DNA of 64,000 nucleotides. Source: an uncultured Pseudomonadota bacterium (lineage in GTDB: Bacteria; SAR324; NAC60-12). Made by a program: the position numbers and the translations under genes. Positions 385 through 42,795 of the stretch are shown piece by piece. The notes below the pieces were generated by a model. That model saw only the letters and a program-made list of their open reading frames with translations, made no database searches and was not told the DNA's origin. Each line of letters begins with the position of its first letter. Positions within the stretch are counted from its first letter, which is position 1. Where the stretch lies: contig CAJWCD010000001.1 of assembly GCA_913020725.1 (NCBI GenBank), forward strand, positions 23,564 to 87,563, in the 5' to 3' direction.

Positions 385-852
385 ATGGCCGAGCGATTTT
401 CAAGCTATTTCTCTAGAGACGTGTGGGAGTGGCGTCTCGGAACCCCCGAAGAGTTGAGTCGGTTCGATACAATTTGCTTCGTGCGTCCGTGGCAATCTCA
501 GGATTTCGACCAGATGCTTGCCCAGAAAACCATCCATGCTTGGACGGGTCGGATTTCAGGAGAACCGGCCGGCTACGCCTGCGTGCAGTTCATCCCGCCA
601 GAGCTTGAGATTCTACGGTTTGGAGTGCTCCCGGAGTTCCGCAACCAAGGACTCGCCCGGAAAATCTTGAAGGAACTGGAATCGTGGGCGAGGAAGGTCG
701 GAGGGGAAACCATCTTCTTGGAGGTCCACGCAACGAATCATCCGGCCAGAAGGCTGTATGCCGGAAGTGGCTTTCGGGACGTGGGAATCCGGAAGGGCTA
801 CTACACCGACCCTCCGGGAGATGCGCTGCTGCTCCAAAAAACGCTCGGCTAG
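385..852 (+). CDS. GNAT family N-acetyltransferase, RimI-like (ribosomal-protein-alanine acetyltransferase family)
   Basis: 155 aa with acetyl-CoA-binding GNAT motifs (RNQGLARKIL..., ETIFLEVHATNHPARRLYAGSGF). Divergent from rpsB. The stop TAG at 850-852 shares the CTAG tetranucleotide with the convergent uvrA stop. Confidence 0.75.
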   Translation: MAERFSSYFSRDVWEWRLGTPEELSRFDTICFVRPWQSQDFDQMLAQKTIHAWTGRISGEPAGYACVQFIPPELEILRFGVLPEFRNQGLARKILKELESWARKVGGETIFLEVHATNHPARRLYAGSGFRDVGIRKGYYTDPPGDALLLQKTLG

Positions 853-3800
853 GCCGCTCCAGAATCCGGTACAGACAAGGCCGTTCCGGGGGCCATTCCG
901 AACAAGGGAGAGAGAGCCTGCCCCGTGTAGCTGTCAGGGCAGCGGGCACAATCCTCCGGAGTTCCGGAGAACAGCAAGTGACCTCCAGCCCCCCCTCCTT
1001 CCGGTCCCAAATCAACAAGCCAATCTGCTGTCTTGATCACCTCCGGATTGTGTTCGATGACGACCACAGTGCTGCCTTCGTCCACCAGTCGATGCAACAC
1101 CTTGAGCAGGCGGGCTACGTCGTCTACGTGCAATCCGGTGGTCGGCTCGTCGAGGATGTAGAGCGTCCCGCCTTTGGAACGCTTGGCGAGTTCCGCCGCG
1201 AGTTTGATGCGCTGGGCTTCGCCTCCGGAAAAGGTGTGCCCAGCCTGCCCCAGCTTCATGTAGCCCAAGCCCACGTCCTGAAGGGTCTGGAGGATGCGGC
1301 GAATGCGGGGCTGAGCTTCGAACAACTCCAACGCCTGCGTGATTTCCAACCCCAGCACATCAGCGATCGTCTGCCCTCGGTAGGTCACGGTCAGCGTCTC
1401 GCGGTTGTAGCGCTTGCCCTTGCAGGCATCGCAGGGAATCCAGACATCCGAGAGGAAGTGCATCTCGATGAGGTGATAGCCCTGCCCATCGCAAGTGGCA
1501 CAGCGTCCTTCGGCAGCATTGAAGGAAAAGCGACGTTTCGTGAAACCCCGTGCCTTGGCTTCGGGCATCATCGCAAAGACATCCCGGATCGGATCCAGCG
1601 CCTTGGAGTAGGTCGCAGGGTTCGAGCGCGGAGTGCGGCCAATCGGGTCTTGGTCAATGACCATGAGTTGCGAAACGTACTCCAGCCCCGTGATTTTCCG
1701 GTGCGCCCCAACCTCGACTCGCTTTCCGGACACCCTGCGCTCGGCGGCCCGCAAGAGCGTGTCCACCACCAGCGAGGATTTCCCGGAACCCGAAACCCCC
1801 GTCACCACTGTCAGCACACCCAGCGGGAATTCCACATCAACCTCTTTGAGGTTGTGTTGGGATGCCCCCTGAATCAGAATGGCGCGTTGCGAATTGACCG
1901 GCCTGCGCTCTTCCGGAATCAGGATTCCCTTTTTGCCACTGAGGTACTTTCCGGTAATCGAACTGCCTTTGTGTTCGACCTGCTTCGGACTCCCGGAGGC
2001 CACCACCATGCCACCGTAGTGCCCCGCCCCCGGTCCCACGTCCACCAGGTGATCTGCTTGTCGGATCACCTCAAGATCGTGTTCGACCACGATGATCGTG
2101 TTGCCCAAGTCCCGCAACCGCTTGAGGGTGCGGACGAGACGGTCCGTATCGCGGGGGTGCAGGCCGATGGTGGGTTCATCAAGAACGTACATCACACCTA
2201 CCAATCCAGAGCCGATCTGCGATGCCAGCCGAATGCGCTGAGCTTCTCCGCCGGAAAGGGTGGCAGCTCGCTGATCTAGCGTGAGGTAATCCAGCCCTAC
2301 ACTTTCCAGAAACTCCAGCCGCGTGAGGATCTCACGCAAGGGCTGCTCGGCGATCACTTGCTCGTTGCGCGTCAACCGCCACGACTCCAGTTCTGCACGA
2401 GCCTCACACACATTAAGTCGGCAGAGCTGGCTGATGTTGAGCCCCGCGATTTTCACAGCCCGCACCACCGGCTTGAGGCGTTCGCCTCCGCAGTCCGGAC
2501 ACTTCGTCTCCCCGCGATAACTGGACAGTTCCCCCAAACCGTCACAGTGCGGACACGCTCCCACATGCGAGTTGAACGAGAACATCCGGGGCGTCAACTC
2601 CTCCTCCAAGAAAAAATCATCTTCCACATCGGCCGGAACTTCCGAGAGCCATTCCGTCTTTTTCTTGTCCGGAAAACGCAGTTTAAGCAAGCCATGTCCT
2701 CGACTGAAGGCAGTTTCAAACGCCTCCGCGAGCCGTTTCTGTTCCTCGGCCTCCACCCGCACCCGATCCACCACGAGGTCCACACTCGTTTTCCGGGTGA
2801 GCTTGCGCGGCTTTTTTGCCGTGTCCCACTCGTCCAGCAGCACGGGCTTGCCGTTGACGAGCATCCGCACAAAGCCATCCTCCCACAAGGACGAAACCAC
2901 ACTCGACAGGTGATCCGGACGATCCAGTAGTAAATCCTTTGTCGAGCCGGGCAGAAAGAGCGGAGCCAGCACTTCCACGCGCTCGCCATCGTGATGCTCG
3001 GTGACATGCAGCGCCGCCCGGGTGGGGGTGAAGTGCCGGAGCGGACGCCCGGACTTGGGTGAGTGCGGTTTGCCTATGCGGGCAAAGAGCAGGCGCAGGT
3101 AATCGTAAATCTCGGTCGTTGTGGCAACGGTGGAGCGGGGATTGCGACTCGCTCTCTTTTGGTCAATCGCAATTGCCGGAGTCAACCCTTCGATCGAATC
3201 CACTGGCGCCTTGTCCATGCGTCCGAGGAAACGACGGGCGTAGGTGGAAAGTGATTCTACATAGCGAGCCTGTCCCTCGGCAAAAAGCGTGTCGAACGCA
3301 AGGCTCGTCTTCCCGGAACCCGAAACCCCCGTGATGACCGTCAGCTTGTTCGCCGGAATGCGGACATCCACATGCCGCAGGTTGTTCTTGGACGCGCCCT
3401 TCACCACCAAATCCCGCAACGGCACTTTGGGAAGTGCGCGGAATTTTGCGGACGAGTCCGCGATTGTTTCCGTTGCGGAATTGGTGTGGGCGCGGGTACG
3501 CTGCCTCGTGCTACCGCCAAGTCCCTTTGGAACTTTGCCCCTCTGGAACTTTGCCCCTTCCCTCAGCACTTGGGCGAGGAACTGCCCCGTGAGCGTTTTC
3601 TGCTCAGCCAAGTGTTCTGGAGTGCCCACACCAACGACTTGGCCTCCGTGCTTCCCACCACCTGGGCCAAGTTCAATGACGTGATCCGCGACTTTGAGGA
3701 CGTCAAGGTTGTGTTCGATGACCAACACCGTGTTGCCCTGCACGACCAATTCGTCGAGCGCTTTCAGCAGAACCCGGATGTCCTGAAAGTGCAGTCCGGT

Positions 3801-6389
3801 CGTCGGTTCATCGAAAATGTAGAACGTGTTGCCCGTGGCTTTTTTTCGTAACTCAGAGGCGAGTTTCACACGCTGCGCTTCTCCTCCGGAAAGCGTCGTG
3901 GAGGGTTGCCCAAGCCTGACGTAGCCTAGCCCCACGCTTTGCAGGGCTTGCAGGATGGGAGCGATCTTGGGCTGGCTTGAGAAGAACTCTGCCCCTTCGT
4001 CCACCGTCATCTCTAACACATCGATGATCGTCTTACGCTTGTAGCGGATTTGCAGAGTTTCGGCGTTGAAGCGTTTCCCCTGGCAGGTGTCACAGGGAAT
4101 CTGCACATCCGCCAAAAACTGCATCTCGATGGTCTGCACTCCGTTGCCGTTGCAGTCCCCACAACGCCCACCCCAGACGTTGAAGGAGAAACGGCTTTTG
4201 GTGTAGCCCCGCACCTTCGCTTCCGGAACCTTTGCAAACAGGTCGCGGATGGGGTCCAACACCTTGGTGTAGGTCGCGGGGTTGCTGCGCGGGGTGCGGC
4301 CAATCGGGGCTTGGCTAATCTCGATGACGCGGTCCACATGCTCTAGTCCCGTGATGCGGTCGTGTGGTCCCGGAACCTCAACACTGTTTGGGATGAGTTT
4401 TTGGGCGATCGCCTTTTTGAGAATGCCATCGATGAGCGACGATTTCCCGGAGCCGGAAACCCCCGCCACCGCCACGAAGCAGCCCAGCGGAATCTCGACC
4501 GTCACATCTTGCAGGTTGTTGAGGCGGGCACCGTGGACGGTGAGCCTGTTTTCGCCAAGAGTCCGGTGCTGCTCCGGAAGCGCGATTTGCTCGATGCCTG
4601 CGAGGAATTTTCCGGTGACCGATTCCGGGGTGTTCCGAAGATCACTCACGCTGCCTTCAGCAGTGATGTACCCACCCTCCAACCCAGCGACTGGGCCAAT
4701 GTCCACCAAGTGATCGGCAGATTCGATGGTTTCTTCGTCATGCTCGACCACCAGCACTGTGTTGCCACGATCCCGCAGTTTTTTGAGGGTGCGGATGAGC
4801 TTCTGGTTGTCGCTCTGGTGCAGGCCAATGGAGGGTTCATCCAAGACATAAAGCACCCCTTGGAGTCCGGCTCCAAGTTGTGAAGCGAGCCGGATGCGCT
4901 GGCCCTCGCCGCCAGCGAGTGATCCTGCGGAGCGGTCGAGGGTAAGGTAGCCGACCCCAACATCGTTGAGGAAGTGCAACCGGTCACGGATTTCCCGGAA
5001 AATGTCCCGGCCAATCTTCTGCTCGGTTTCGGTGGGAACGAGGTTCACGAAGAAATCGAGGGCTTCTTCGATGGACACCTCGCTGAGTTGGTCAATCGTG
5101 CGCTCGTGAAAGCGCACCGCCAAGGCCATCGCACTGAGACGCTTGCCGTGACAGTCCGGACAGATCGAGGAGTCCTGGAACTTTTCCATCGGCCCCCGCA
5201 CAAAGCGATAAACGAACTCCAAAATTGGCACCACTCCGGGCCAGTGCCCCTGCTGAATCTTGCGGCGGAGTTGTCCGGGAAAGCGAAAGACATTGGACAC
5301 GCCCAAGGGGGCACTGCCCTTGCCGTGCAGGATGAGGTTGCGCTGCTCTTCCGGAAGCTCACCCCATGGAGTGGACCAACTCACCTTGAGCTTGTTGCTG
5401 GCGGCCTGAAGGTGGGTGTGGTCAATGCGGGTAAAGAGGATATTGCCGCGCTCGGTACAACAAAGCAACGCCCCATCCCGCAGTGAAAGTGCGGGATCGC
5501 AGAGCTTGTCCTCGACAAAGGTGTTCAGCACCCCAAGGCCGTTGCAGGTGGAACATGCCCCTTGCGGAGCGTTGAACGAGAAGAGCCGAGGCTCCATTTC
5601 TGGAAGGGCGGTCTGGCACTTCGGACACGCAAGCAGTTGGCTGAAGAGGTGATCGTGGTCGCAGTAGTTCAGCACCACCAGCCCGTTTGCGAGTTGCAGA
5701 GCTTTCTCCACGCCCTCAGTGAAACGACTCTTTTCGTCGGAGCTGAGCGTGAGGCGATCCAGCACCAACTCGATGGTGTGCTTCTCGTAACGAGCGAGGG
5801 TGATTTCCTCATCAAGCCGCCGCACCTCGCCATCAATCCGCGCCCGCACAAAGCCCTCCTTCGCCCAGCCGACCATTTCCTTGCGGTACTCGCCCTTGCG
5901 TTCGCGGACCATCGGCGCAAGCAGCAGGCAGGTTTCGCCCTCTGCGTCGGCATACGCGAAATCGGTGATCTGCTCCGGAGTTTGGGTGGTCACCGGAACT
6001 TGACACTTGGGGCAGTGCGGAGTGCCCAACCGTGCGAAGAGCAACCGGAAGTGGTCGTACACCTCCGTGATCGTGCCCACCGTGGAGCGTGGGTTGCGGT
6101 TTACCGTTTTCTGGTCAACAGAAATGGTTGGACTGAGCCCCTCGATGTGTTCCACCTTGGGCTTTTCCATCTGCCCAAGGAACTGGCGGGCGTAGGGCGA
6201 GAGTGACTCGACAAAACGTCGCTGGCCCTCCTTGAAGATGGTGTCAAAGGCGAGGGAGGATTTCCCGGAACCGCTCACTCCCGTGAAGACGGTGAGCGCA
6301 TTGCGGGGCAGGGTGAGATTGACGTCCTTGAGGTTGTGTTCGGACGCACCGACAATGACGATTTGGTCAGGCGAATCCGGAGCATCCAT
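849..6389 (-). CDS. uvrA: Excinuclease ABC subunit A, tandem-fused double UvrA (two complete UvrA modules in one 1846-aa ORF)
   Basis: Single 5.5-kb ORF. Four Walker A sites are visible (TGVSGSGKSSLAFDT, AGVSGSGKSSLIDG, TGVSGSGKTSLAFDT, TGVSGSGKSSLVVDT), plus four ABC signature/Walker B pairs and UvrA zinc modules (CPKCQ...CPKCQ, CSTCNGLG, CPHCDGLG, CGDCNGNG). A second UvrA N-terminus (RDLVVKGASKNNLRHVDVRIP...) restarts near residue 940 after a low-complexity linker. Confidence 0.9.
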   Translation of the reverse strand: MDAPDSPDQIVIVGASEHNLKDVNLTLPRNALTVFTGVSGSGKSSLAFDTIFKEGQRRFVESLSPYARQFLGQMEKPKVEHIEGLSPTISVDQKTVNRNPRSTVGTITEVYDHFRLLFARLGTPHCPKCQVPVTTQTPEQITDFAYADAEGETCLLLAPMVRERKGEYRKEMVGWAKEGFVRARIDGEVRRLDEEITLARYEKHTIELVLDRLTLSSDEKSRFTEGVEKALQLANGLVVLNYCDHDHLFSQLLACPKCQTALPEMEPRLFSFNAPQGACSTCNGLGVLNTFVEDKLCDPALSLRDGALLCCTERGNILFTRIDHTHLQAASNKLKVSWSTPWGELPEEQRNLILHGKGSAPLGVSNVFRFPGQLRRKIQQGHWPGVVPILEFVYRFVRGPMEKFQDSSICPDCHGKRLSAMALAVRFHERTIDQLSEVSIEEALDFFVNLVPTETEQKIGRDIFREIRDRLHFLNDVGVGYLTLDRSAGSLAGGEGQRIRLASQLGAGLQGVLYVLDEPSIGLHQSDNQKLIRTLKKLRDRGNTVLVVEHDEETIESADHLVDIGPVAGLEGGYITAEGSVSDLRNTPESVTGKFLAGIEQIALPEQHRTLGENRLTVHGARLNNLQDVTVEIPLGCFVAVAGVSGSGKSSLIDGILKKAIAQKLIPNSVEVPGPHDRITGLEHVDRVIEISQAPIGRTPRSNPATYTKVLDPIRDLFAKVPEAKVRGYTKSRFSFNVWGGRCGDCNGNGVQTIEMQFLADVQIPCDTCQGKRFNAETLQIRYKRKTIIDVLEMTVDEGAEFFSSQPKIAPILQALQSVGLGYVRLGQPSTTLSGGEAQRVKLASELRKKATGNTFYIFDEPTTGLHFQDIRVLLKALDELVVQGNTVLVIEHNLDVLKVADHVIELGPGGGKHGGQVVGVGTPEHLAEQKTLTGQFLAQVLREGAKFQRGKVPKGLGGSTRQRTRAHTNSATETIADSSAKFRALPKVPLRDLVVKGASKNNLRHVDVRIPANKLTVITGVSGSGKTSLAFDTLFAEGQARYVESLSTYARRFLGRMDKAPVDSIEGLTPAIAIDQKRASRNPRSTVATTTEIYDYLRLLFARIGKPHSPKSGRPLRHFTPTRAALHVTEHHDGERVEVLAPLFLPGSTKDLLLDRPDHLSSVVSSLWEDGFVRMLVNGKPVLLDEWDTAKKPRKLTRKTSVDLVVDRVRVEAEEQKRLAEAFETAFSRGHGLLKLRFPDKKKTEWLSEVPADVEDDFFLEEELTPRMFSFNSHVGACPHCDGLGELSSYRGETKCPDCGGERLKPVVRAVKIAGLNISQLCRLNVCEARAELESWRLTRNEQVIAEQPLREILTRLEFLESVGLDYLTLDQRAATLSGGEAQRIRLASQIGSGLVGVMYVLDEPTIGLHPRDTDRLVRTLKRLRDLGNTIIVVEHDLEVIRQADHLVDVGPGAGHYGGMVVASGSPKQVEHKGSSITGKYLSGKKGILIPEERRPVNSQRAILIQGASQHNLKEVDVEFPLGVLTVVTGVSGSGKSSLVVDTLLRAAERRVSGKRVEVGAHRKITGLEYVSQLMVIDQDPIGRTPRSNPATYSKALDPIRDVFAMMPEAKARGFTKRRFSFNAAEGRCATCDGQGYHLIEMHFLSDVWIPCDACKGKRYNRETLTVTYRGQTIADVLGLEITQALELFEAQPRIRRILQTLQDVGLGYMKLGQAGHTFSGGEAQRIKLAAELAKRSKGGTLYILDEPTTGLHVDDVARLLKVLHRLVDEGSTVVVIEHNPEVIKTADWLVDLGPEGGGAGGHLLFSGTPEDCARCPDSYTGQALSPLFGMAPGTALSVPDSGAA

Positions 6390-19456: not shown

Positions 19457-23250
<3,794 letters not shown>

Positions 23251-24327
23251 TCACTCCACAATCCGTCCTTGAAAAATCTGGATTTTCTCGCCATGAACCG
23301 CTCTTCCTTGAGGAAGGGTTGTCGAAGTAATAAAGACTTGGTTCTCCATTTTTTCAAGCGTTGAAATTGTATGGTTGACTACCCTTTGATCCAACTCTGA
23401 AAACAAGTCATCCAAAATGATGACCGGATGGTTCCCCGTCTTCTTTATTAATACCGAATTTATACACAATTTTAAAGACAAATATGTGATGCGATACTCT
23501 CCTTGAGAAAAGAACTCCCGATCTCTTCTCTCACCAAGTTGCATCCGGTAGTCATCCCGGTGAGGACCAACCAGCGCATGGCCGTATTGTCGTTCCCTCC
23601 CAAGGGAACTCTCAATTTCATGAAGAACCGAATCCTCTCCTTTATCCCAGCTGCGGAGAGCAGGTTCGTACTGCAATTCAAGAGCCTCCTCTCGCCCTGT
23701 CAATTCCTGAAAAACCGAGGAGAGTGTTTCGTTGACTTGTGCAACAAATTTCTGTCGTTTTTTTGTGATGCTGACTCCATAACGAGCGAGCAGTTCGTTC
23801 CACGGTTTTATTTCCGCTTCAAGCTGCTGTTTTTTTAGTAGAATATTTTTCTGACCCAGCACCTCCTTGTAGCTCTGCAAATCGGCAAGATGGGTTGAAT
23901 CAAGCAATGAAAGGGTTCGGTTAAAAAAACGGCGGCGTTCCTGAGGTTGATTCCGGAACAAGCTCACACCTTCTGGAGCGAAGGCGAGCGAGGCAAAGGA
24001 CAACATATATTCGGAAGTCCGTTGGAGCACCTTGTGGTCCAAGAGGACGCGTCGACCTTTCTCGTTAACCGTGATGTCGATTTTGTGAAGGACGGAGTTC
24101 CGTTCAACTTCGCCTACAAGACGGGTTGCACAACTCCCGGTGTTGAGCAGGATGGTGGTTTTGCGTGTCCGGAAGGATTCGAGGTTGCAGAGATAGTGGA
24201 TCGCCTCAACCAGATTGGTTTTTCCTTGGCCGTTGCTCCCGATGATCCAATTGCAGGAGGGCGAGAACTTGGCGGAAAGTGTCTTGTAGTTTCGAAATCC
24301 GGTCAGGTTCAGCCCGCGAACTACCAT
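23251..24327 (-). CDS. recF: DNA replication and repair protein RecF
   Basis: Walker A GSNGQGKTNLVEAIHYL and SMC-like signature/Walker B (ILDDLFSELD). 358 aa. Start overlaps the dnaN stop by 7 nt. Confidence 0.88.
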   Translation of the reverse strand: MVVRGLNLTGFRNYKTLSAKFSPSCNWIIGSNGQGKTNLVEAIHYLCNLESFRTRKTTILLNTGSCATRLVGEVERNSVLHKIDITVNEKGRRVLLDHKVLQRTSEYMLSFASLAFAPEGVSLFRNQPQERRRFFNRTLSLLDSTHLADLQSYKEVLGQKNILLKKQQLEAEIKPWNELLARYGVSITKKRQKFVAQVNETLSSVFQELTGREEALELQYEPALRSWDKGEDSVLHEIESSLGRERQYGHALVGPHRDDYRMQLGERRDREFFSQGEYRITYLSLKLCINSVLIKKTGNHPVIILDDLFSELDQRVVNHTISTLEKMENQVFITSTTLPQGRAVHGEKIQIFQGRIVE

Positions 24328-25448
24328 TCAATCCGCAAAGGCATAATCACCGACAGGAAGGAACCATCGGCTTCCTCTCGGACTACACTGGGACTCATGG
24401 GGTTCTTGAACTCCATACGAACCTGAGCGGTGGACATCACTCCGAGGGTATCCAGCAGGTAACGGGAGTTGAAGCCGATCTGGAAATCCTCTCCGGAATA
24501 CTCTGCATCCAGTTCATCACTAACCTCACCATACTCGGCCTTTTCACTTTCCACCCGGAGTTTCCCGGAACTCAGCGTCAGTTTCACAGGACGGAGCTTT
24601 TCCGTGCTGATGGAGGAAACAATCTTGAGTGAACTGACTAAACGCTCCCGGTCCACTGTGGCCACCAAAGTGTTGTCCTTGGGAATGATCGGATCGCAGT
24701 TCGGGAACTTTCCCTCGATCAGCCGTGTCTTGTAGGCGAGGTCATTGCCCATAAACTGCATCACGCGATCATTGAAACTGACCTGAACGGTGTCCCCAAA
24801 CAGCTCAACCGAGCGTCTCACCTCGCTCAGTGCTTTCCGGGGAATAATCACCTCCTGCACTTGGGAAAAGCTTGTACTCTCCGTTTCGGAAAGCACTTGT
24901 GCAAGCCGATGCCCGTCCGTTGCCAACCAACGCACCTTTCCCGTCTCCGGAGTGGTCAAGTTCACCCCCATCAGGTTTCTGCGGGACTCGTTCGTCTGCG
25001 CCGCGAAAAGCGTCATGTCGATTCCGCGCTTCAGATCCTCGACCGGAATTGAGAGTTTTTCCGGAAGGTCCTCAATCTCCGTCTGTGGATACAAGCCGAC
25101 CTCCACAGTTGGAAGCCGGAGTTCCGAACTCCCGCAGGTGGCGTTCACCCAGAGTTGCTCTGTCGATTGAATGTGAACCATCTCTCCGGAAAATTCCCGA
25201 ACGATGTCATACATCTTTCTCGCATTGACGCAGATGCTCCCTTCCTCACGAACCTCAACGGAATGTCTTTCGATCAAGGACAACTCATAATCTGTTGCCG
25301 TGAATTCCGCTTGGGTCTCATCTCCTTCGGCCTCCAAGGTTTTGATTAGAAAATTGGACAGAATTGGTTTCGCCAAACTCTTGTCGATTACGGCAATCAC
25401 ATTCTGAAGAGCGTCTCGTAATACTGAAGTCTTAATTAAGATATCCAT
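24321..25448 (-). CDS. dnaN: DNA polymerase III beta sliding clamp
   Basis: 375 aa with three-domain clamp architecture. N-terminus MDILIKTSVLRDALQNVIAVIDK... and C-terminus ...MPLRIEW are typical of DnaN. Confidence 0.88.
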   Translation of the reverse strand: MDILIKTSVLRDALQNVIAVIDKSLAKPILSNFLIKTLEAEGDETQAEFTATDYELSLIERHSVEVREEGSICVNARKMYDIVREFSGEMVHIQSTEQLWVNATCGSSELRLPTVEVGLYPQTEIEDLPEKLSIPVEDLKRGIDMTLFAAQTNESRRNLMGVNLTTPETGKVRWLATDGHRLAQVLSETESTSFSQVQEVIIPRKALSEVRRSVELFGDTVQVSFNDRVMQFMGNDLAYKTRLIEGKFPNCDPIIPKDNTLVATVDRERLVSSLKIVSSISTEKLRPVKLTLSSGKLRVESEKAEYGEVSDELDAEYSGEDFQIGFNSRYLLDTLGVMSTAQVRMEFKNPMSPSVVREEADGSFLSVIMPLRIEW

Positions 25449-25667
25449 AATTCTCTTTAAATAGTAGTTAGAGGGCAGTTGATTTGTTGATAACTCTACA
25501 ATGTACTGAATTTAATAAATATTTTATCTTTATCAAAGGTCTGGAAGAAGTCGATATAGTTTACCAAACCTTTATCCAATGTAGCAAGAACTGGACGAAA
25601 CTACAGGATTTTTTTGGTTCTGTTGATAAATGTTGGAAGAGTTTTGAAGGAAGGGTTGATAACGTAG
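25449..25667. promoter_or_regulatory. AT-rich dnaN upstream region with repeated DnaA-box-like 9-mers; candidate replication origin or dnaN promoter
   Basis: GTTGATAA[C/A] occurs three times (25487-25496, 25624-25633, 25665-25674). Its reverse complement TTATCAAC(A/C) is 1-2 mismatches from the DnaA box TTATCCACA. TTTATCCAAT is at 25570-25579. A long A+T run (25506-25540) could serve as a DUE. No dnaA gene is adjacent. Confidence 0.35.
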
Positions 25668-26360
25668 CTATCTTGTTGATTTCATATATTTTATGAAAAC
25701 TCCGGAAAGAATGGCTTGGCGACTGAGACTGAGTACGCCATCCAACCAAACCTCTTGCTCAGTGATGAGGGGAGGGCAAAGACAGTGCAACTGAAATTGA
25801 AATCCATTCCAATCTGGTAGCAGAATGATGGTTGCATCCTGAAATTTCAGAGGAACTCGACAGCGGGGAAACAGGCATTTGTAGATTGATTCCTTGGCAG
25901 AAAAGATAGCCTTCAATCCCAAATCAGCTTGAGCGGAGTCAAGGCTCTTCAGCCAAGTTATCTCATCCTCGGTGCAGACGAGCCGGGCAATTCCGGGGTT
26001 GACGGATCGTTCGATCTGTTCCACATCGATCCCAATTGCTGCGATTTCAGAAACTGACGCTGTTGCTGCTGCTGCCCATTTTCCTGAGTGGGTGATGCTT
26101 CCAACGACACCATCTGGCCAGAGGGGTTCTCGAGTGTCCGGATTTCTAGGAATCGGTGAGTCGATCTGCATTTGCTGAAGTGCGAGTCGAGCGCAATGCC
26201 GTCCGCGCCGAAACTCCTTGAGCCGGAGCGGGGAACTGATGGCAGAGGTTGTGGCTTCTTCTTCAGGCAATGCCAAAGGAGGCTCAGGGATACTGGACGC
26301 GAAAAAGTGGACGCTAGAAGGAAAAGGAGAGGGAAGTTCAGAACGCGATTTGTAAGCCAA
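25668..26360 (-). CDS. 4'-phosphopantetheinyl transferase (EntD/Sfp-type)
   Basis: PPTase motifs: WPDGVVGSITHSGKWAAAA, GIDVEQIER and FSAKESIYKCL. 230 aa. Confidence 0.75.
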   Translation of the reverse strand: MAYKSRSELPSPFPSSVHFFASSIPEPPLALPEEEATTSAISSPLRLKEFRRGRHCARLALQQMQIDSPIPRNPDTREPLWPDGVVGSITHSGKWAAAATASVSEIAAIGIDVEQIERSVNPGIARLVCTEDEITWLKSLDSAQADLGLKAIFSAKESIYKCLFPRCRVPLKFQDATIILLPDWNGFQFQLHCLCPPLITEQEVWLDGVLSLSRQAILSGVFIKYMKSTR

Positions 26361-26973
26361 CCGTGGTCATGCCTCCTGAGTAGGATTTTTTCTGTTCAAC
26401 GTTGCTGGCGGTATGAGAACTGTAGTCTCTACTGCTGCCTTTCAGTCGATCAAGCTTGGGGGTGCTAAGGACGTGGTATCCCAAGTGAAACTCCAGCATG
26501 TGGTAGAAGGGCAGACCAATGTGGATGAACCCTTCAGTGACATTGCCTTTGTCGCTGAGGTCTTCTGTACTGGAATCTAAGTCTGCATTTGCGGAGGTCT
26601 TGATCGTGCCAAATCCTACACCAACTGCCATGGTGACCACAGGAAAGGGAATGTGGTAGAAGAAGTTGATCGTTTGGAGTTTGACCTTGGTTACCAGATT
26701 CAGCTTGGAAGAAGAGGGCGAGGTGACGCTGCTAGTTTCTGTATCTGTGAAAGCAAGGGCGCTCCCACCAATATTGGGAATCAAGGGAATCGGATGGGTG
26801 ATGCCAATGGATCCTCCACTCAAGCTTTTTGCAGTGACATTGGTCGCCGAGTAGGCGATTGCGACATCTGTGTTCATCCCGATAAATTGGGCATTGGCCG
26901 ACCCACCCCAAGCCACAGCGGTGAGGACGAGGACAGCAGTGGTTAACGATGCGGTGCGGTTGAGCCCGGCCAT
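26338..26973 (-). CDS. Small outer-membrane beta-barrel protein, paralog 1
   Basis: Signal peptide (...AWGGSANAQ), alternating hydrophobic beta-strand pattern, C-terminal ...TVGLQIAF ending in Phe (OMP sorting signal). Paralogous to the downstream ORF. Confidence 0.6.
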   Translation of the reverse strand: MAGLNRTASLTTAVLVLTAVAWGGSANAQFIGMNTDVAIAYSATNVTAKSLSGGSIGITHPIPLIPNIGGSALAFTDTETSSVTSPSSSKLNLVTKVKLQTINFFYHIPFPVVTMAVGVGFGTIKTSANADLDSSTEDLSDKGNVTEGFIHIGLPFYHMLEFHLGYHVLSTPKLDRLKGSSRDYSSHTASNVEQKKSYSGGMTTVGLQIAF

Positions 26974-32445: not shown

Positions 32446-34028
32446 ATGCATAAGGTTCTGATCACCGGGGCGATCCATCCGGTTGGGCTTGAGCGCTTGC
32501 AACAAGAGTCCGATGTCGAAGTCCACTACGCTCCGGATTTGCCCTCCGGCGAAATCCTCAAGATCATCGAACTCTTCCACTGCATCCTGACCCGTTCGGA
32601 AACGCCGATTACACGAGAGTTGCTTGACTGCGCCCCGCATCTATGGGTGGTGGCTCGTGCTGCGGTTGGGGTGGGGAACATCGACATCGCCTACGCCACA
32701 GAGCGTGGCATTCTGGTGATCAACACGCCCGCCAAAAACACGAACTCGGCTGCGGAACTCACGCTGGGGCTGGCTGATCAGCACCATGCGCAAGTTGGTG
32801 CCTGCCCACTTGCACATGGCCAGCGAGGGCTGGGATCGGCACCAATTCACCGGCACCGAACTGCTGGGCAAGATGATCGGAATTGTTGGGCTGGGGAACG
32901 TTGGGCATCGAGTCGCACGGTTTGCGCAGGCGTTTGAGATGAAGGTTCTGGCCTACGATCCCCACATTGCCGATGAGGTTTTTGAGCGGCACCAGGTCCG
33001 GAAGGTGAGTTTGGAGGAGTTGCTGACCCAAGCGGATGCCGTCAGTGTTCATGTGCCCAAGAATGCCGAGACCACCGGAATGATTGGGGCAAGCGAGCTT
33101 GCCCAGATGAGGCCCGGGAGTGGTGATCATCAACGCAGCCCGTGGCGGCGTGGTGGATGAAGCGGCTCTGCTGAAAGCTTTGCAATCGGGCCAGGTGGTG
33201 GCGGCTGGAATTGACACTTGGGAGGAGGAACCCCCGCAGGACAATCCTTTCCGGGATTTGCCGCAGGTGGTGATGACACCGCACATTGGGGCATCAACGG
33301 TTGAGGCGCAGATTCGCATTGCGGAAACTATTGCCGTTCAGGTTCCCAAGGCGTTGCGTGGGGAGGTGGTGGATTTTCCCGTGAACATGCCCGCCGTGCA
33401 AGTGCTGGACAGTCCGGTGGTGAAATCCTACACCACCCTTGCGGAGCGTTTGGGGTTGTTTGCCTCGCAGTACATCGGGTTTGCTCCGGATCGGCTGAAA
33501 ATCCACTACCGGGGAGGATTGGCAAAATACGATCCCTCGTTGCTGCGGCTTTGCTTTTTGCGAGGATTGCTGGGCAACACGCACGAGTATGTGAGCTACG
33601 TCAACGCGGACCAAGTCGCCGAGAGTTCCGGGTTGCATGTGGAAGAGGTGCAGGATCCCGGATTCACGGATTATGAAAGTGCGGTCAAGTTTCAACTGGC
33701 TGGAAAGGCGGGAGAGTTCCAGATTAGTGGGGTGGTCTTCAGCGGACCTCACCCCCGGATCACCCGGCTGAACGATTTTGTTTGTGAGATTGAACCAGAG
33801 GGAACAATTTTGGTGACAACCAATGAAGACCGCGCCGGAATGATTGGGATCATTGGCACCTGCCTTGGCGACAATCAGGTCAACATCAACCAATTTGAAT
33901 TGTCCCGGACGAGCCGTGGCGGGGAGGCGATGGCCATGATCCGGGTGGATGACGGCGTTTCGGGGCGGGTCTTGGAAAACCTCCGCACCTGCCCTGGTAT
34001 CACCTCTGTGCGTAAGGTTGTGTTGTAG
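32446..34028 (+). pseudogene. serA: D-3-phosphoglycerate dehydrogenase (SerA) interrupted by two +1 frameshifts
   Basis: Three consecutive ORFs in frames 1, 2 and 0 (32446..., 32786..., 33120...) together give a full SerA. These are the nucleotide-binding GIVGLGNVGHRVARFAQAFEMKVLAYDP, the catalytic ...NAARGGVVDE...TPHIGAST, and the C-terminal ACT domain. Removing one g near 32770-32772 (ctggggctgGctgatc) restores TLGLLISTMRKLVPA. Removing the a at 33119 (cccgggAgtggtg) restores MRPGVVIINAARGG. Confidence 0.7.
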
Positions 34029-34030
34029 CC

Positions 34031-35989
34031 ATGCGGTACCTCAAGTCCTTGATGGACCAGAACTTTCTGGAATATGCGTCCTATGTCATCAGGGACCGTG
34101 CGATTCCGGACATTGACGATGGGCTCAAACCGGTGCAGCGCCGCATTCTCCACACGATGTGGAAAATGGACGACGGCAAGTTCAGCAAGGTGGCCAACAT
34201 TGTTGGCGAGACCATGAAGTTGCACCCACATGGAGACGCCTCCATCGGCTCGGCACTGGTAGTGATCGCCAACAAGGAGTACTTCATTGAGAAGCAGGGA
34301 AATTTCGGCAACTTCTTCACCGGCGACCCCGCCTCTGCCTCGCGTTACATTGAAGCTCGCCTGACTCCGCTGGCGAAGGAGGTGCTGTTCAATCCGGAAA
34401 TCACGGCGTTTGTTGAAAACTACGACGGGCGCTCTCAGGAACCTGTTGCGCTGCCCTGCAAGATTCCTGCGGTGCTGCTGCTGGGAGCCGAGGGCATCGC
34501 CGTGGGCATGTCCACCCGCATTCTGCCGCACAACTTCAACGAGGTGCTGGACGCTCAAATCGCGCTGCTCCAAGGCGAGGATCGTCAACTCTTCCCGGAT
34601 TTCCCCACAGGCGGACTCATGGATGCCGCACTCTACGAGGACGGCAACGGCAAAGTTCGGGTGCGCTCCCAAATTGAGCAGGTGGACGACAAAACTCTGG
34701 TGGTCCGGGATCTGCCCTACGGCGTCACTACCGAATCGCTCATTCAATCTATTCAGGATGCGACCAACAAGGGAAAGCTGAAGCTGACCTCCATCAATGA
34801 TTTCACCACCGACACGGTGAACATCGAACTGCGGGCCGCTCGTGGGGTGAGTGCAGGAGAAGTGCTGAAGCGGCTTTATGCGTTCACTCAGTGCGAGGTG
34901 TCTATCTCTGTGAACCTGTTGGTGATCCACAAGAACCAGCCCGAGCTAACAAGCGTCACCGACGTGCTCAAGCACTGCACAGATTGGTTGCAGACGGTGC
35001 TGCGCCGAGAGTTGGAACTTGCTTTGGAGCAAGCTCGGTTGCAGTGGCACCGCAAGCGCCTAGAAATGTATTTCATTGAGAATCGTATTTACCAGCAGAT
35101 CGAGGAGTGCGAAAACTATGAGGAGGTGCAATCCACGGTGGCGAAGGGGTTGTTTTCGTTGCAGTCGGAACTGGATCGGTTGATCACAGATGAGGACGTT
35201 GAAGCATTGCTTTCCTTGCAAATCAAACGGCTTTCCCGCTATGACTGGGAGCGTAGCCAGAAGGAACTGGACAAGCTGCAAAAGCGGATTCGTAAACTGA
35301 AGCATAACCTTCGGACGCTCAAGGACTACACCATTCAATACTTGCAGGGATTGAAGGAAACTTACGGGGCCATGTATCCACGACAGACCTCCTTGGAGGG
35401 TTTTGATGCCATTCGGAAGGAGGAAGTGGCCGAATCCTTCAGCGTGGGCTGGGATCGAAAGTCCGGGTTCTTGGGAGCAGAGGTGAAGGGCAAGCAGACG
35501 TTCACCTGTTCGGTGCTGGATCGGCTTCTCATTGTCCACAAGGATGGTCGCTACCGCGTGGTGAGGGTTCCGGAGAAACTGTTCGTGGGCAAGGATGTTT
35601 TGACAATTGAGAAAGTAGATGGTCGCGTGGTGTTCAATCTGGTGTACTCCAGCGGTGACAGCCAAATCTGTTACGCCAAGCGGTTTCAGGTTCAGCAATT
35701 CATTCTGGATCGTGAATACCGTCTTTTCAAACGGGCAAAGGGCGCCAAGATTATCCACCTGAGTCAGGGGCCGGGTGTGATGCTGGAGGCACACTATGTG
35801 CCGACCCCGCGACTCCGGAAATCTCGGGAACTGCTGATGTTTGACACCTTGGCCATCAAGGGGATTCAGGCGCGGGGGAACCGGGTTTCCACAAAACCGG
35901 TGCAGAAAGTTCGGCAGGTGACAGAGGTGGCCGCAGAATCCTCTACACAACTCACGCTTCCGGAGCCGAAGGCAGATCATGCATCCTGA
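34031..35989 (+). CDS. Type IIA topoisomerase A-subunit-like protein (GyrA/ParC N-terminal breakage-reunion domain, C-terminal beta-pinwheel domain absent)
   Basis: 652 aa. KPVQRRILHTMW, HPHGDASIGSALVV and the active-site tyrosine context ASRYIEARL. It continues through the tower and coiled-coil regions but ends without the ~300-aa GyrA C-terminal domain. No B subunit is adjacent. Confidence 0.7.
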   Translation: MRYLKSLMDQNFLEYASYVIRDRAIPDIDDGLKPVQRRILHTMWKMDDGKFSKVANIVGETMKLHPHGDASIGSALVVIANKEYFIEKQGNFGNFFTGDPASASRYIEARLTPLAKEVLFNPEITAFVENYDGRSQEPVALPCKIPAVLLLGAEGIAVGMSTRILPHNFNEVLDAQIALLQGEDRQLFPDFPTGGLMDAALYEDGNGKVRVRSQIEQVDDKTLVVRDLPYGVTTESLIQSIQDATNKGKLKLTSINDFTTDTVNIELRAARGVSAGEVLKRLYAFTQCEVSISVNLLVIHKNQPELTSVTDVLKHCTDWLQTVLRRELELALEQARLQWHRKRLEMYFIENRIYQQIEECENYEEVQSTVAKGLFSLQSELDRLITDEDVEALLSLQIKRLSRYDWERSQKELDKLQKRIRKLKHNLRTLKDYTIQYLQGLKETYGAMYPRQTSLEGFDAIRKEEVAESFSVGWDRKSGFLGAEVKGKQTFTCSVLDRLLIVHKDGRYRVVRVPEKLFVGKDVLTIEKVDGRVVFNLVYSSGDSQICYAKRFQVQQFILDREYRLFKRAKGAKIIHLSQGPGVMLEAHYVPTPRLRKSRELLMFDTLAIKGIQARGNRVSTKPVQKVRQVTEVAAESSTQLTLPEPKADHAS

Positions 35990-36053: not shown

Positions 36054-36248
36054 ATGTCTTTTAAATGTCAAATCTGCGATAAGCATCCTGGGTACGGGAA
36101 CAACGTCAGTCACGCGAACAACAAGACTCGTCGACGCTGGCTCCCCAACCTGCAAAACGTCCGGGTCCGGACGCCTGATGGCAACCGCAAGAAAATGCGG
36201 GTCTGCACCCAGTGTATTCGCTCAGGAAAGACTCTCGCTAATCTCTAG
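36054..36248 (+). CDS. rpmB: 50S ribosomal protein L28
   Basis: [59 protein letters not shown]. Start at the internal ATG 36054 (the track ORF begins at 36024). Confidence 0.88.
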
Positions 36249-37112: not shown

Positions 37113-37202
37113 CTTACCTTGCCTTCCGTCAGTTTTTTTGCTATGTTCAGCATTAGACAGGAACATACGTTCGTGAGTACTTTTTTTTCTATGGAGGTCA
37201 CA

Positions 37203-38408
37203 ATGTCCAATTCACTGAAATTGAGATTCCGGCTTACTTTGTTGCCGTTGGCGTGGCTGATGCTCTGCGGAATCGAGCGGGGTCCGAAGCCAGGCTATGA
37301 GGGCTTCTCGCTCGGAGACCTACAAGCGAATTACGAGGGGCCTTCGGTGATCCCGACCTCGTTTTATTACTTGCTGGCTTTCGTGATTGCCGCAGGGGTG
37401 GGGGGATTCTTTTTGTTGCGCTACATCCGGGCCAAGCAGGAGCAGGAGGAACTGGACAAGATCGTTGACGAGCAGGCGCAGTTGGAACTGGACACGGAAC
37501 TGGAGGCCCGCCGAGTAAGCGAAGAAAACCGGGAGTTTCTCAGAGAACTGTGTGACACGGAGGATCCGGTTGAACTGGTTCCAGTGATTATGTCCTTTGA
37601 GGAGTTTGAAAAGGTGGTGGAGGAATTCAAGGCCTCTCCCCGCTTCCGGGCTCCTGCGCTTGCGCAGATATTCAACCTTCGCAAGGCTTTGGGTTTCACG
37701 ATCAAGAACTCCGAATACGCCTTCCTTTGCACACAAATGCTGCTGAATGGGACGAAGTTGGAATGCCAGATTCATAGCAAAGGCAAGTCTGTTGCGTTTA
37801 TGACAAGTGTGTTGGATGCGAACGAGACAGAGTTGCTGATCAAGCCTCCGACGGTCAAGCGGCGTCCGGCGAACCTGAAGCAGTTTCCCGAAATCGCCTG
37901 CCGATTACGGCGAGAAGGAGATGCCGATTATGACTTCACGCTCCGGGTGCTTGATCAGATCACGGATGAGATGAATGCGGTGGTGCTGGAGCAGTCTAAG
38001 CACATCCGCACAATGAGAATTCGCCAATCAGAGCGGATCTCCGTGAACATAGAGATGGATTTTCAACTTGTATCCGAGGCTCAGTACGAGTTGGAGAAGA
38101 TGGAGGAGCAGTCTCGCGGGGAACACATCCCTATAACCGCCAAGGTGGTGGACATGAGCGCAGGAGGGATCAAGTTGCAGATTTCTAAAATGCCCGCCCG
38201 TCCGATCATCACAGGGGACGTACTGGTGTTTCACTTGGCCCGATCAAGCCTGCGCCAAGATCTGGCTGCTGGAGTATTGCAGGTCGTTCCCCGTGGAGGG
38301 CTTTTCGACCTGCACACGACTTTCCGGGAGATGGATACCTTGACCAGGATCAAGATCAACCAGTACCTTGATCGTGTCCAGAAGAGTGAAATTCCACAGG
38401 CGGCTTAG
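37203..38408 (+). CDS. Membrane-anchored PilZ-domain protein (putative c-di-GMP receptor)
   Basis: Start at ATG 37203 with GGAGG 7 nt upstream (the track ORF begins at 37119). Two N-terminal hydrophobic helices, a coiled coil, and a C-terminal PilZ signature RIRQSER(RxxxR)...DMSAGGIKL (DxSxxG). Confidence 0.6.
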   Translation: MSNSLKLRFRLTLLPLAWLMLCGIERGPKPGYEGFSLGDLQANYEGPSVIPTSFYYLLAFVIAAGVGGFFLLRYIRAKQEQEELDKIVDEQAQLELDTELEARRVSEENREFLRELCDTEDPVELVPVIMSFEEFEKVVEEFKASPRFRAPALAQIFNLRKALGFTIKNSEYAFLCTQMLLNGTKLECQIHSKGKSVAFMTSVLDANETELLIKPPTVKRRPANLKQFPEIACRLRREGDADYDFTLRVLDQITDEMNAVVLEQSKHIRTMRIRQSERISVNIEMDFQLVSEAQYELEKMEEQSRGEHIPITAKVVDMSAGGIKLQISKMPARPIITGDVLVFHLARSSLRQDLAAGVLQVVPRGGLFDLHTTFREMDTLTRIKINQYLDRVQKSEIPQAA

Positions 38409-39697
38409 ACGAACAGCACCTCGGTGAATCGGCTCCGGAGTCGGTTCACTTCGTCCTTGGCGGAACCCCCGCTGATCACGGCTTTGACTAGGGACGCTAA
38501 CTCTCCCATCTCGTCTTCCTTCATCCCATACCGCGTCATTTCCTGAACGCCGATCCGAAGCCCGGAGGGATTACGGGCATCGGTATCTCCTGGAAGCATA
38601 TTGTAGTTGAGGATGATGTCGTTGTCCGCCAAACTCCGGGCGATGTCCTTTCCTAGGCCGAAGTTGGAGACGTTAATCGCAAGCTGGTGGCTTTCCGTGA
38701 AGCCAAAATCCTCGGCTTCCACTTGCACCCCTTCATCCATCAAGGCTCGTCCAAACGCTTTCGCATTCGCAACAATTTGCTGAGCGTAAGCGGCACCGTG
38801 AGCCTTGGCTTCACGGATGGCGATCACGAGCCCTGGCAAGGTGTGGAGGTGGTGACTGCTTGATGAACCCGGCATCACGCCTCGGTCAATGCTCTGCCAC
38901 CACTTGAGTTCTTTGTCGGATTTCAGGTTTCCAAGAATCACCCCACGCTGAGGTCCGGGGAAAGTCTTGTGGGTGCTGGCATTGATGAAGTGCGCACCTT
39001 CAGCAAAGGGGTTCTGGAACTGCCCTCCGAGGATCAAGCCAAGCACATGCGCTCCGTCGAACAGCACGGGAATCCCAAAGGATCGGCAACACTCCGCAAT
39101 TGCTTGAACTGGCTCCGGGAACAGGAACAGGCTTTTTCCCAGCATGACCAGCTTGGGCCGGACTTGATCCACCAGCGCGACACACTTTTCCGCGTCGAGG
39201 TGATAGCCATCCGGGGTGGTCGGCCAATAGTGCAGGGAGATGGAGTTGTCCTTTCCGGGAAACAAGGATTGGCCCCGAGTTTGAATCCGTCGGCCCACCA
39301 CTCCAATCGGGTTGTGGCTGATGTGTCCGCCCGCGTCAATGGAGTTGACGATCACGGAGTCGGCTCCGCGCAGGAGGGCAAGGGCGATTGCGGTGTTGGC
39401 GGCGTTGCCGCTGATGGGCCGCACGTCGGCCTGCTCGCATCCAGCCAACTCGATGAGTTCCCGCGTCGCCATGCTCTCGATCTCGTCAATGTAGCAAGTC
39501 CCCTCGTAGTAGCGGTTGTCGGTGTCCGGGGTGTTAGGATGCCCTTCGGCGTAGCGCCCCATGAAGTCGTTGCACTCCACCTGCCTGATTGCGGGAGACT
39601 GCACGTTCTCGCTAGCGATGAGATTGATTGTTTCTTGCCCGCGCCAGTAGTTTTGGCGTTCAACGATGCCAAGAACGTCTGAAATTTCGACTGCCAT
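38405..39697 (-). CDS. glyA: Serine hydroxymethyltransferase (divergent GlyA / SHMT family)
   Basis: LIASENVQSPAIRQV...YAEGHP and the PLP-lysine motif STHKTFPGPQRGVILG. 430 aa. Divergent from the canonical bacterial GlyA N-terminus. Confidence 0.72.
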   Translation of the reverse strand: MAVEISDVLGIVERQNYWRGQETINLIASENVQSPAIRQVECNDFMGRYAEGHPNTPDTDNRYYEGTCYIDEIESMATRELIELAGCEQADVRPISGNAANTAIALALLRGADSVIVNSIDAGGHISHNPIGVVGRRIQTRGQSLFPGKDNSISLHYWPTTPDGYHLDAEKCVALVDQVRPKLVMLGKSLFLFPEPVQAIAECCRSFGIPVLFDGAHVLGLILGGQFQNPFAEGAHFINASTHKTFPGPQRGVILGNLKSDKELKWWQSIDRGVMPGSSSSHHLHTLPGLVIAIREAKAHGAAYAQQIVANAKAFGRALMDEGVQVEAEDFGFTESHQLAINVSNFGLGKDIARSLADNDIILNYNMLPGDTDARNPSGLRIGVQEMTRYGMKEDEMGELASLVKAVISGGSAKDEVNRLRSRFTEVLFV

Positions 39698-42149: not shown

Positions 42150-42152
42150 TCT

Positions 42153-42794
42153 TCAGTTGATTTGTATGTTGGAGGTCGTTCCGCTGGTTGTTTCGGCCAC
42201 TGCCATTTCCATCAGAGTGAGTAGATATTCCCAACGCATGGAGAGGTTGGGAGCTTCCAGTAGCGCTTGTTTCTCGGTGCAGGAAAAATCAAGGTTCATG
42301 CAGAGGATGTTGACGAGGTAATGAACGGGGATCGCCTCGATTTTCTGCCACTCGATCTGGATGAATTTTTTCTCGGTGTAGTGACGAAAGGCCTCGTACA
42401 GCTTCTCAGGATTCTTACTGAGGGACTGGTCGTCCAAATCCTGCTCATACGAGGTGTAATCGACCTGTGCCTGTCGGTAAAGTGAGTTCACCTCCAACTC
42501 CCGGACCACGTTGAAGCGAATCGACCCGTGGAGTTGAAGCATGTAATTCCCATCCGGAAGCTGCTGAAGTTGCTCAATTTTCCCAAGGCATCCGGTTTGG
42601 TAAAGCCCTTTGGAATCCTGCTCGACAGGTTGAATCATTCCGATAACCATCTCCTTCTCTGAGACGGACTCGACCATCTGCCGATAGCGCGGCTCAAAGA
42701 TGTGCAGCGGCAGCACAGTGTTGGGCAGCAGGATGGTTCCGCTCAAAGGGAAAAGAGGAACAACATCGGCAAACAGTGTGGACGTTGAATCCAT
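42153..42794 (-). CDS. Lon N-terminal (LON substrate-binding) domain protein
   Basis: LFPLSGTILLPNTVLPLHIFEPRYRQMV matches the LON_N/PUA-like N-terminus. The start is chosen at the ATG at 42794 (MDSTSTLF...), giving 214 aa. The track ORF extends to 43025, which would overlap ribF. Confidence 0.65.
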   Translation of the reverse strand: MDSTSTLFADVVPLFPLSGTILLPNTVLPLHIFEPRYRQMVESVSEKEMVIGMIQPVEQDSKGLYQTGCLGKIEQLQQLPDGNYMLQLHGSIRFNVVRELEVNSLYRQAQVDYTSYEQDLDDQSLSKNPEKLYEAFRHYTEKKFIQIEWQKIEAIPVHYLVNILCMNLDFSCTEKQALLEAPNLSMRWEYLLTLMEMAVAETTSGTTSNIQIN

Positions 42795-42795
42795 T

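Follow-up and report, generated by a model that had tools for sequence, protein, structure and literature searches.

Why does the serA locus of an uncultured SAR324 bacterium fall into three reading frames? The locus lies in a stretch of 64,000 nucleotides of contig CAJWCD010000001.1 (hereafter the window, meaning this whole 64-kb stretch) and would code for D-3-phosphoglycerate dehydrogenase (PGDH), the enzyme of the first step of the phosphorylated serine pathway. An original prediction, made from the letters of the window, had offered two answers: true pseudogenisation, or sequencing and assembly errors. From the comparison with related sequences presented here we conclude, with a probability a little above 0.9, that serA of the window is a genuine and recent pseudogene, i.e. 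a formerly functional ortholog that was inactivated and is now decaying neutrally in a marine lineage of the SAR324 cluster.

The locus (32446-34028, + strand) consists of three consecutive + strand open reading frames (ORFs) in frames 1, 2 and 3. No single uninterrupted frame is present in the native sequence, and the longest products are 163, 124 and 302 aa. Taking out one base at each of two sites restores a 1581-nucleotide (nt) frame of 526 codons without a stop, and this computationally repaired translation, and only this, matches the PGDH model TIGR01327 (an NCBIfam equivalog) with 570.1 bits (cutoff 454) from end to end (residues 3-526 of 526 on model positions 1-525 of 525). The prediction that a full SerA is obtained only by joining three frames, across two +1 frameshifts, was thus borne out. 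The Pfam domains PF00389 (2-Hacid_dh), PF02826 (2-Hacid_dh_C) and PF19304 (PGDH_inter, ASB) were found above their cutoffs in the repaired protein; the ACT domain scored 23.9 bits, slightly under its 27-bit cutoff. The catalytic residues R232, E261 and H279 stand in invariant columns, and the GxGxxG motif is present as G148-L-G-N-V-G153. The closest solved structure is the PGDH of M. tuberculosis (1YGY/3DDN, also 3DC2), which has 528 aa compared with the 526 aa of repaired SerA and could be aligned (3DDN) over residues 23-506 with an E-value of 7e-93. All four parts of a type I PGDH, the substrate-binding lobe, the NAD-binding lobe, the intervening ASB domain and the ACT domain, are found in the repaired protein too. 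The serA frame of the window, however, has two interruptions, and sister strains have others, which makes it a relic of this family rather than a working member.

The first piece (frame 1, 163 aa, 32446-32937, + strand) holds the authentic residues 1-109, and thereby the larger part of the substrate-binding lobe with its R50-S-E-T53 motif, before it runs into an out-of-frame tail of 54 aa. The second (frame 2, 124 aa, 32786-33160, + strand) comprises residues 114-224 with the NAD-binding GxGxxG region plus a 13-aa tail. The third (frame 3, 302 aa, 33120-34028, + strand) covers residues 225-526 with the three catalytic residues, the ASB domain and the ACT domain. Exactly the same 163-aa product is encoded on two other contigs, and exactly the same 124-aa product, which requires both shifts, on five further ones. 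As judged from its reading frames, the locus cannot encode a PGDH.

The comparison is based on 23 contigs covering the serA locus (L021-L043), which were found via close relatives in a large protein collection, the ORF pieces of the window, ParC and a DNA pattern. Their sources are a Tara Oceans run, megahit and SPAdes assemblies in ENA, Logan assemblies of three SRA runs, five metagenome-assembled genomes (MAGs) at NCBI, and JGI metagenomes. MAGs with this locus are GCA_012960405.1, GCA_002313905.1, GCA_029936055.1, GCA_029935935.1 and GCA_029935975.1. Twenty-one of them belong to the clade of the window (97.3-99.9% nt identity over serA) and two (L024 and L041) to a sister lineage (about 86-88% nt identity). 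The nearest named proteins and genomes come from the SAR324 cluster, which in GenBank is labelled also as Deltaproteobacteria or Candidatus Lambdaproteobacteria; in a scan of GTDB with one genome per species the best match had 70% aa identity.

The first lesion is an insertion, G to GG, at codon 110 (32772-32773, + strand; alignment with relatives), by which GGGGCTGCTG becomes GGGGCTGGCTG (GGGGCT-GCTG becomes GGGGCTGGCTG). The surplus g that had been predicted near 32770 is therefore the extra G at 32772/32773. No other lesion is as old or as widespread. Of the 20 copies that are informative in the clade sharing at least 97% identity, 19 have it and only L023 is without the additional G; L025, where the region is deleted, and L030, which has a scaffold gap there, are uninformative. 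Its carriers comprise 18 contigs other than the window, from unrelated samples and assemblers, including Tara ERR599125, CAOS20-1, ERZ272xxxxx megahit contigs and Logan SRR5324534 as well as the NCBI MAGs GCA_012960405.1 and GCA_002313905.1 and JGI Ga0310125. In the sister lineage (L024, L041) the insertion is missing and the flanking sequence is nearly identical.

The second lesion, CC to CCC at codon 223/224 (33111-33113, + strand; again from the alignment with relatives), changes AGGCCGGGA into AGGCCCGGGA. It is secondary and belongs to one sub-lineage, with six copies carrying it (the window and L036-L040, which are five independent assemblies) and 14 other clade copies lacking it. Here the original prediction was correct in assuming one surplus base but had taken it for the a at 33119; the alignment, in which the relatives read AGGCCGGGAGTG or ATGAGGCCGGGAGTGGTG, places it as a C at 33111-33113. 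The repaired protein is the same with either base removed (MRPGVVIINAARGG).

Uninterrupted serA genes exist in L023 (98% nt identity), in the sister lineage L024/L041 (about 87% nt identity) and in SAR324 relatives at 60-70% aa identity. The gene order FliN-GT9-DUF4254-serA-parC-pheA (PDT)-PilZ-glyA is common to the window, L023, the sister lineage and the contigs L001, L004-L006, L016 and L017 of the SAR324 relatives; serA is a 526-aa gene in the sister lineage and a single uninterrupted match in these SAR324 contigs. Because the same gene order is found in relatives with an intact serA, the gene that is broken in the window corresponds by orthology to the normal serA and is no spare copy. 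A close relative with an uninterrupted frame had beforehand been regarded as speaking against the prediction. Such frames do occur, in L023 and in the sister lineage at about 87%, yet going by the alignments they show the ancestral state of the gene rather than an error in the window.

Besides the two insertions of the window, nucleotide alignment revealed further lesions in other strains: a +T insertion after 32906 (L035), a +G insertion after 33804 (L022, L038), a 2-bp deletion at 33962-3 (L033, L034), a nonsense mutation CAG to TAG in codon 249 (L039) and a 240-bp in-frame deletion which removes the GxGxxG NAD-binding motif (L025). In protein clusters, serA fragments were found that end after residues 109, 168, 215, 224, 262 and 453 with out-of-frame tails, and others that end after residues 248 and 424 and have no tail. 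A full-length serA is absent from all ten contigs whose ParC is identical to that of the window. The insertions +C33113 and +G33804 were seen in all four combinations (window, L022, L038 and L021), and many substitutions are patchy and homoplasic in their distribution. These combinations of lesions indicate that alleles were probably exchanged within the clade by homologous recombination, or that the same mutations arose recurrently.

The N-gaps of two independent scaffolds fall inside serA (L030, about 3100-3250; L033, about 690-870) and mimic indels in alignments. An apparent 594-bp deletion in L030 and an apparent +11 insertion in L033 turned out on inspection to be such scaffold N-runs and were dropped from the lesions. 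High strain heterogeneity of a neutrally evolving locus, which breaks metagenome assembly, may be the reason for gaps at this place.

If serA is dead, it should differ from its neighbours in the way it evolves. Between the window and the sister lineage it does not: dN/dS is 0.107 for serA, 0.059 for parC and 0.098 for pheA. This similarity to parC and pheA indicates that serA was under constraint for most of its history. Within the clade the picture is different. There serA has 53 segregating sites per kb compared with 11-24 in seven flanking genes, and its variants are distributed over the three codon positions as 26:24:34, compared with 2:3:18 in parC. Fifty of the variants in serA are nonsynonymous, 32 are synonymous and one is a nonsense mutation; the corresponding numbers for parC are 6 nonsynonymous and 17 synonymous. 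Among matched carriers of the +G, the unweighted Nei-Gojobori pN/pS was 0.45 for serA and 0.06-0.23 for parC, pheA, glyA and the PilZ gene. The polymorphisms are transitions in a ratio of 6:1 (transitions to transversions 48:8), and when the neutral expectation was recomputed for this sequence at that ratio, the expected nonsynonymous fraction was 0.673. Measured against this value, serA as a whole (33 of 54 variants nonsynonymous, p=0.38, omega about 0.76) does not deviate from neutrality, and the ORF of 413 aa (codons 114-526) in strains having only the first lesion even reaches an omega of about 1.08 (18 of 26 nonsynonymous). All four controls lie below the neutral value with p<0.02 (omega 0.10 for parC, 0.18 for pheA, 0.21 for glyA and 0.37 for the PilZ gene). 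As far as the pattern of substitutions can tell, this shows that serA is now neutral within the clade.

The loss seems to be young. At 144 positions of PGDH that are near-invariant (conserved to 95% or more across 115 diverse PGDHs), the window adds only I69V, K222R and I524V to the changes of the intact sister gene; these are all conservative, and no radical change is found. It is on these three conservative changes that the young age of the pseudogene is based. Radical changes are scattered in single strains, e. g. R50C in L021. The allele of L023 (serA at 578-2155, P0001), although its frame is intact, carries T53M, A70T and L245S at near-invariant positions and a one-codon deletion that removes F431. 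L025 (serA at 4167-5504, P0003) combines an L023-like background with the 240-bp deletion and is thus at least one apparently independent inactivation. The changes in L023 together with the deletion in L025 suggest, albeit from small numbers, that constraint has been relaxed across the whole clade and not only after the +G insertion. In strains with an intact frame serA may therefore be non-functional or relaxed too.

Several points weigh against our interpretation. The case is built on assembled sequences. The frequencies of the alleles are biased, since L036-L040 were retrieved by ORF pieces of the window and L026-L035 by an identical ParC; among the unbiased finds (L021-L023, L025, L042, L043) four have the +G, one has an intact copy and one lacks the site through a deletion. 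The unweighted pN/pS of serA, 0.45-0.5, is significantly below 1, and neutrality is supported only after correction for the transition bias; the counts of substitutions are small. Finally, a second PGDH, a non-phosphorylated route or serine derived from glycine could make the loss of serA harmless.

This last point leads to the alternative that survives best, which competes only with the physiological part of our explanation. According to it serA is a true pseudogene and no auxotrophy results, since the gene was already redundant and serine is provided by a second PGDH paralog, by glyA from glycine and methylene-tetrahydrofolate, or by the non-phosphorylated route from glycerate. We regard this as slightly more probable than its opposite. 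The gene glyA, encoding serine hydroxymethyltransferase, is located 4.4 kb downstream (38405-39697, - strand; PF00464). It is intact on every contig, where it codes for 430 aa, it evolves under purifying selection (omega 0.21 as given above), and it could provide another route to serine, starting from glycine. Genes for glycine-betaine demethylation have been reported from SAR324 genomes (PMC12478193), and this pathway could supply glycine and one-carbon (C1) units. The apparently independent inactivation in L025 and the changes T53M and A70T in L023 likewise suggest a relaxation that preceded any single lesion. On the other hand, our analysis yielded no evidence for a source of glycine or for a sufficient flux from it, and in the relatives this locus shows a single serA, to which the broken gene corresponds as syntenic ortholog. 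The gene content of the serine pathway was assessed on the window and on about 10 kb of flanking sequence in the relatives. Within the window no serB, serC or second PGDH was detected in Pfam scans, nor any second 2-hydroxyacid dehydrogenase; beside serA in distant relatives no serC was found, the only related hit being a short 2-hydroxyacid dehydrogenase in L010.

Far less probable is that serA is still functional, either by programmed +1 frameshifting at both sites, as in prfB, or as a split enzyme composed of the N-terminal piece and the 413-aa or smaller pieces. The locus resembles genes of the prfB/RF2 type in that a +1 shift is required and that a G-rich, Shine-Dalgarno-like GGGG precedes the first site; moreover, R232, E261 and H279 have all been kept, and the 413-aa ORF is the commonest form of the gene. 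Programmed sites, however, are normally conserved, whereas the extra bases are confined to the clade of at least 97% identity and are missing in L023, L024, L041 and all more distant relatives. Neither site has the properties of such a signal. At the first (CUG GCU GAU) CUG-G offers tRNA-Leu no slippery sequence, and the 0-frame codon that follows is not a stop and not rare; at the second (CCC GGG AGU) there is no stop and no slip competent for re-pairing. In contrast to prfB, the downstream frame is unconstrained and has acquired further lesions. As to the split enzyme, the 413-aa ORF has an omega of about 1.08 where it is the sole product, which disfavours a functional truncated enzyme; other strains show at least five distinct disruptions of it; and the main product lacks residues 1-109 with the conserved R50-S-E-T53 motif of the substrate-binding lobe.

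That the two surplus bases are an artefact of one assembly and the real serA is intact, as the original prediction had allowed, can be practically dismissed even though both insertions lengthen short runs (G to GG, CC to CCC) and L023, at 98% nt identity, has an intact allele, because 18 and 5 other contigs, respectively, of differing projects, sequencing runs and assemblers have these insertions at exactly the same positions, because L023 and L024 have identical flanks without the extra base, so that the context does not induce errors, and because errors in one assembly cannot produce independent additional lesions and neutral evolution.

What remains of the two options is true pseudogenisation, in agreement with the recurring insertions, the extra lesions in other strains and the neutral evolution of serA next to constrained neighbours. 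The course of events is the following. The insertion of one base, G to GG, at codon 110 severed the substrate-binding lobe from the remaining enzyme, and the resulting allele spread through nearly the whole clade of at least 97% identity, which is represented in many ocean samples. With constraint lost, sub-lineages added lesions of their own, that of the window the change from CC to CCC at codon 223/224. Active PGDH would no longer be made from this locus, and the phosphorylated serine pathway would be blocked at its first step. Serine would then most likely be obtained from glycine via the intact and constrained glyA and/or by uptake, as in SAR11. That the dead DNA persists is probably due to its youth and, less certainly, to its position directly upstream of the essential parC, with which it probably shares one transcript.

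The gene parC itself (topoisomerase IV subunit A, 34031-35989, + strand) is intact and served as the internal control for constraint (omega 0.10). Its product has 652 aa on every contig, and beside serA fragments it has this length wherever the contig is long enough. Its start lies 2 nt after the stop of serA, and it is solely from this spacing that the two genes are taken to be probably co-transcribed. No promoter- or terminator-like site was found on the + strand between them, the consensus scan giving nothing better than shuffled controls. Downstream of pheA follows a gene with a PilZ-N domain (37119-38408, + strand), which is called with 399, 401, 403 or 411 aa across the contigs and has 429 aa as the longest ORF here; among the four main flanking controls it is the least constrained (omega about 0.37). 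In the entire 64 kb no Rfam family reached the gathering threshold and no tRNA gene was detected, thus neither a glycine riboswitch nor a T-box is linked to the serA locus.

The remainder of the window is densely packed with full-length housekeeping genes (secA, uvrC, a clpA/B-type ATPase, der, gyrB, recF, dnaN, parC, rpmB and pheA, furthermore glyA, ribF, dprA, smpB, recA, cmk and others). According to the ORF map and Pfam no other gene in the 64 kb is split over frames, which agrees with what had been predicted for the other long genes. The intactness of the rest of the window indicates that the genome is not generally degraded. Two apparent irregularities were resolved: a seemingly non-coding gap of 646 bp (42150-42795) contains a Lon-N-terminal-like ORF (about 214 aa, - strand) that is intact, and the region of an odd 92-aa ORF after parC holds an intact rpmB (about 36054-36248). 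The cumulative GC skew has its minimum at about 24-26 kb, in the region 20803-26400, where Pfam identifies gyrB (20803-23199), recF (23254-24327) and dnaN (24324-25448), all on the - strand. The dnaN-recF-gyrB region is probably the neighbourhood of the replication origin, with dnaA unusually absent beside dnaN; the next upstream gene encodes a 4'-phosphopantetheinyl transferase. At 852-6389 (- strand) a double-length UvrA-like protein of 1846 aa is encoded, which seems to be a tandem fusion of UvrA, the UvrA interaction domain being present in two stretches alongside several ABC ATPase regions.

Auxotrophies for amino acids shape how microbes of the ocean depend on each other. As a rule such auxotrophies are deduced from genes missing in incomplete MAGs, and evidence of this kind is weak, whereas a serA that is present but dead is positive evidence of loss. 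The series of serA alleles across global metagenomes moreover lets gene decay be followed as a natural time series in a free-living bacterium with a non-reduced genome. There is also a practical side: annotation pipelines label the products of the locus (413 aa or smaller) as "phosphoglycerate dehydrogenase", and metabolic reconstructions of these MAGs may for this reason wrongly score serine biosynthesis as complete. The result is thus of relevance to marine microbial ecologists and for metabolic reconstruction from MAGs; a specialist will not be surprised by it. In a literature search no mention of this SAR324 serA locus was found. Both the pseudogenisation of biosynthetic genes and a glycine/serine dependency of the SAR11 type are already known, and the locus is an ordinary kind of event that is unusually well documented.

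Among known systems, the adaptive or neutral loss of genes in free-living bacteria, as discussed for 'Black Queen' dependencies and unitary pseudogenes, is a close parallel. There as here, a small indel inactivates the gene, secondary lesions build up and omega moves toward 1, and the rest of the genome stays intact. There is no difference in kind; the one unusual thing is that the decay of serA can be watched while under way, in many alleles from across the global ocean.

The physiological counterpart would be SAR11 (Pelagibacter), which is reportedly auxotrophic for glycine and serine. Like SAR11, the SAR324 lineage would be an abundant bacterium of the oligotrophic ocean that has no working phosphorylated serine pathway, interconverts glycine and serine by glyA and depends on glycine or serine from outside or on that derived from C1 compounds and osmolytes. 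In SAR11, however, the genes of the serine pathway are reportedly simply absent and the auxotrophy was demonstrated in culture, whereas in this SAR324 lineage, known here from sequence, serA is still present as a young pseudogene and some strains have it intact. It is conceivable, if rather unlikely in our estimate, that a cosmopolitan, mostly deep-ocean SAR324 lineage is on its way to becoming a serine/glycine auxotroph, in which a serA allele that inactivates the gene has become almost fixed in the species worldwide, a few strains keep an intact frame and the secondary lesions are shuffled by recombination. If this were true, and if no other PGDH and no internal source of glycine existed, the dependency known from SAR11 would have arisen a second time, independently and much more recently, and its intermediates could still be observed in nature.

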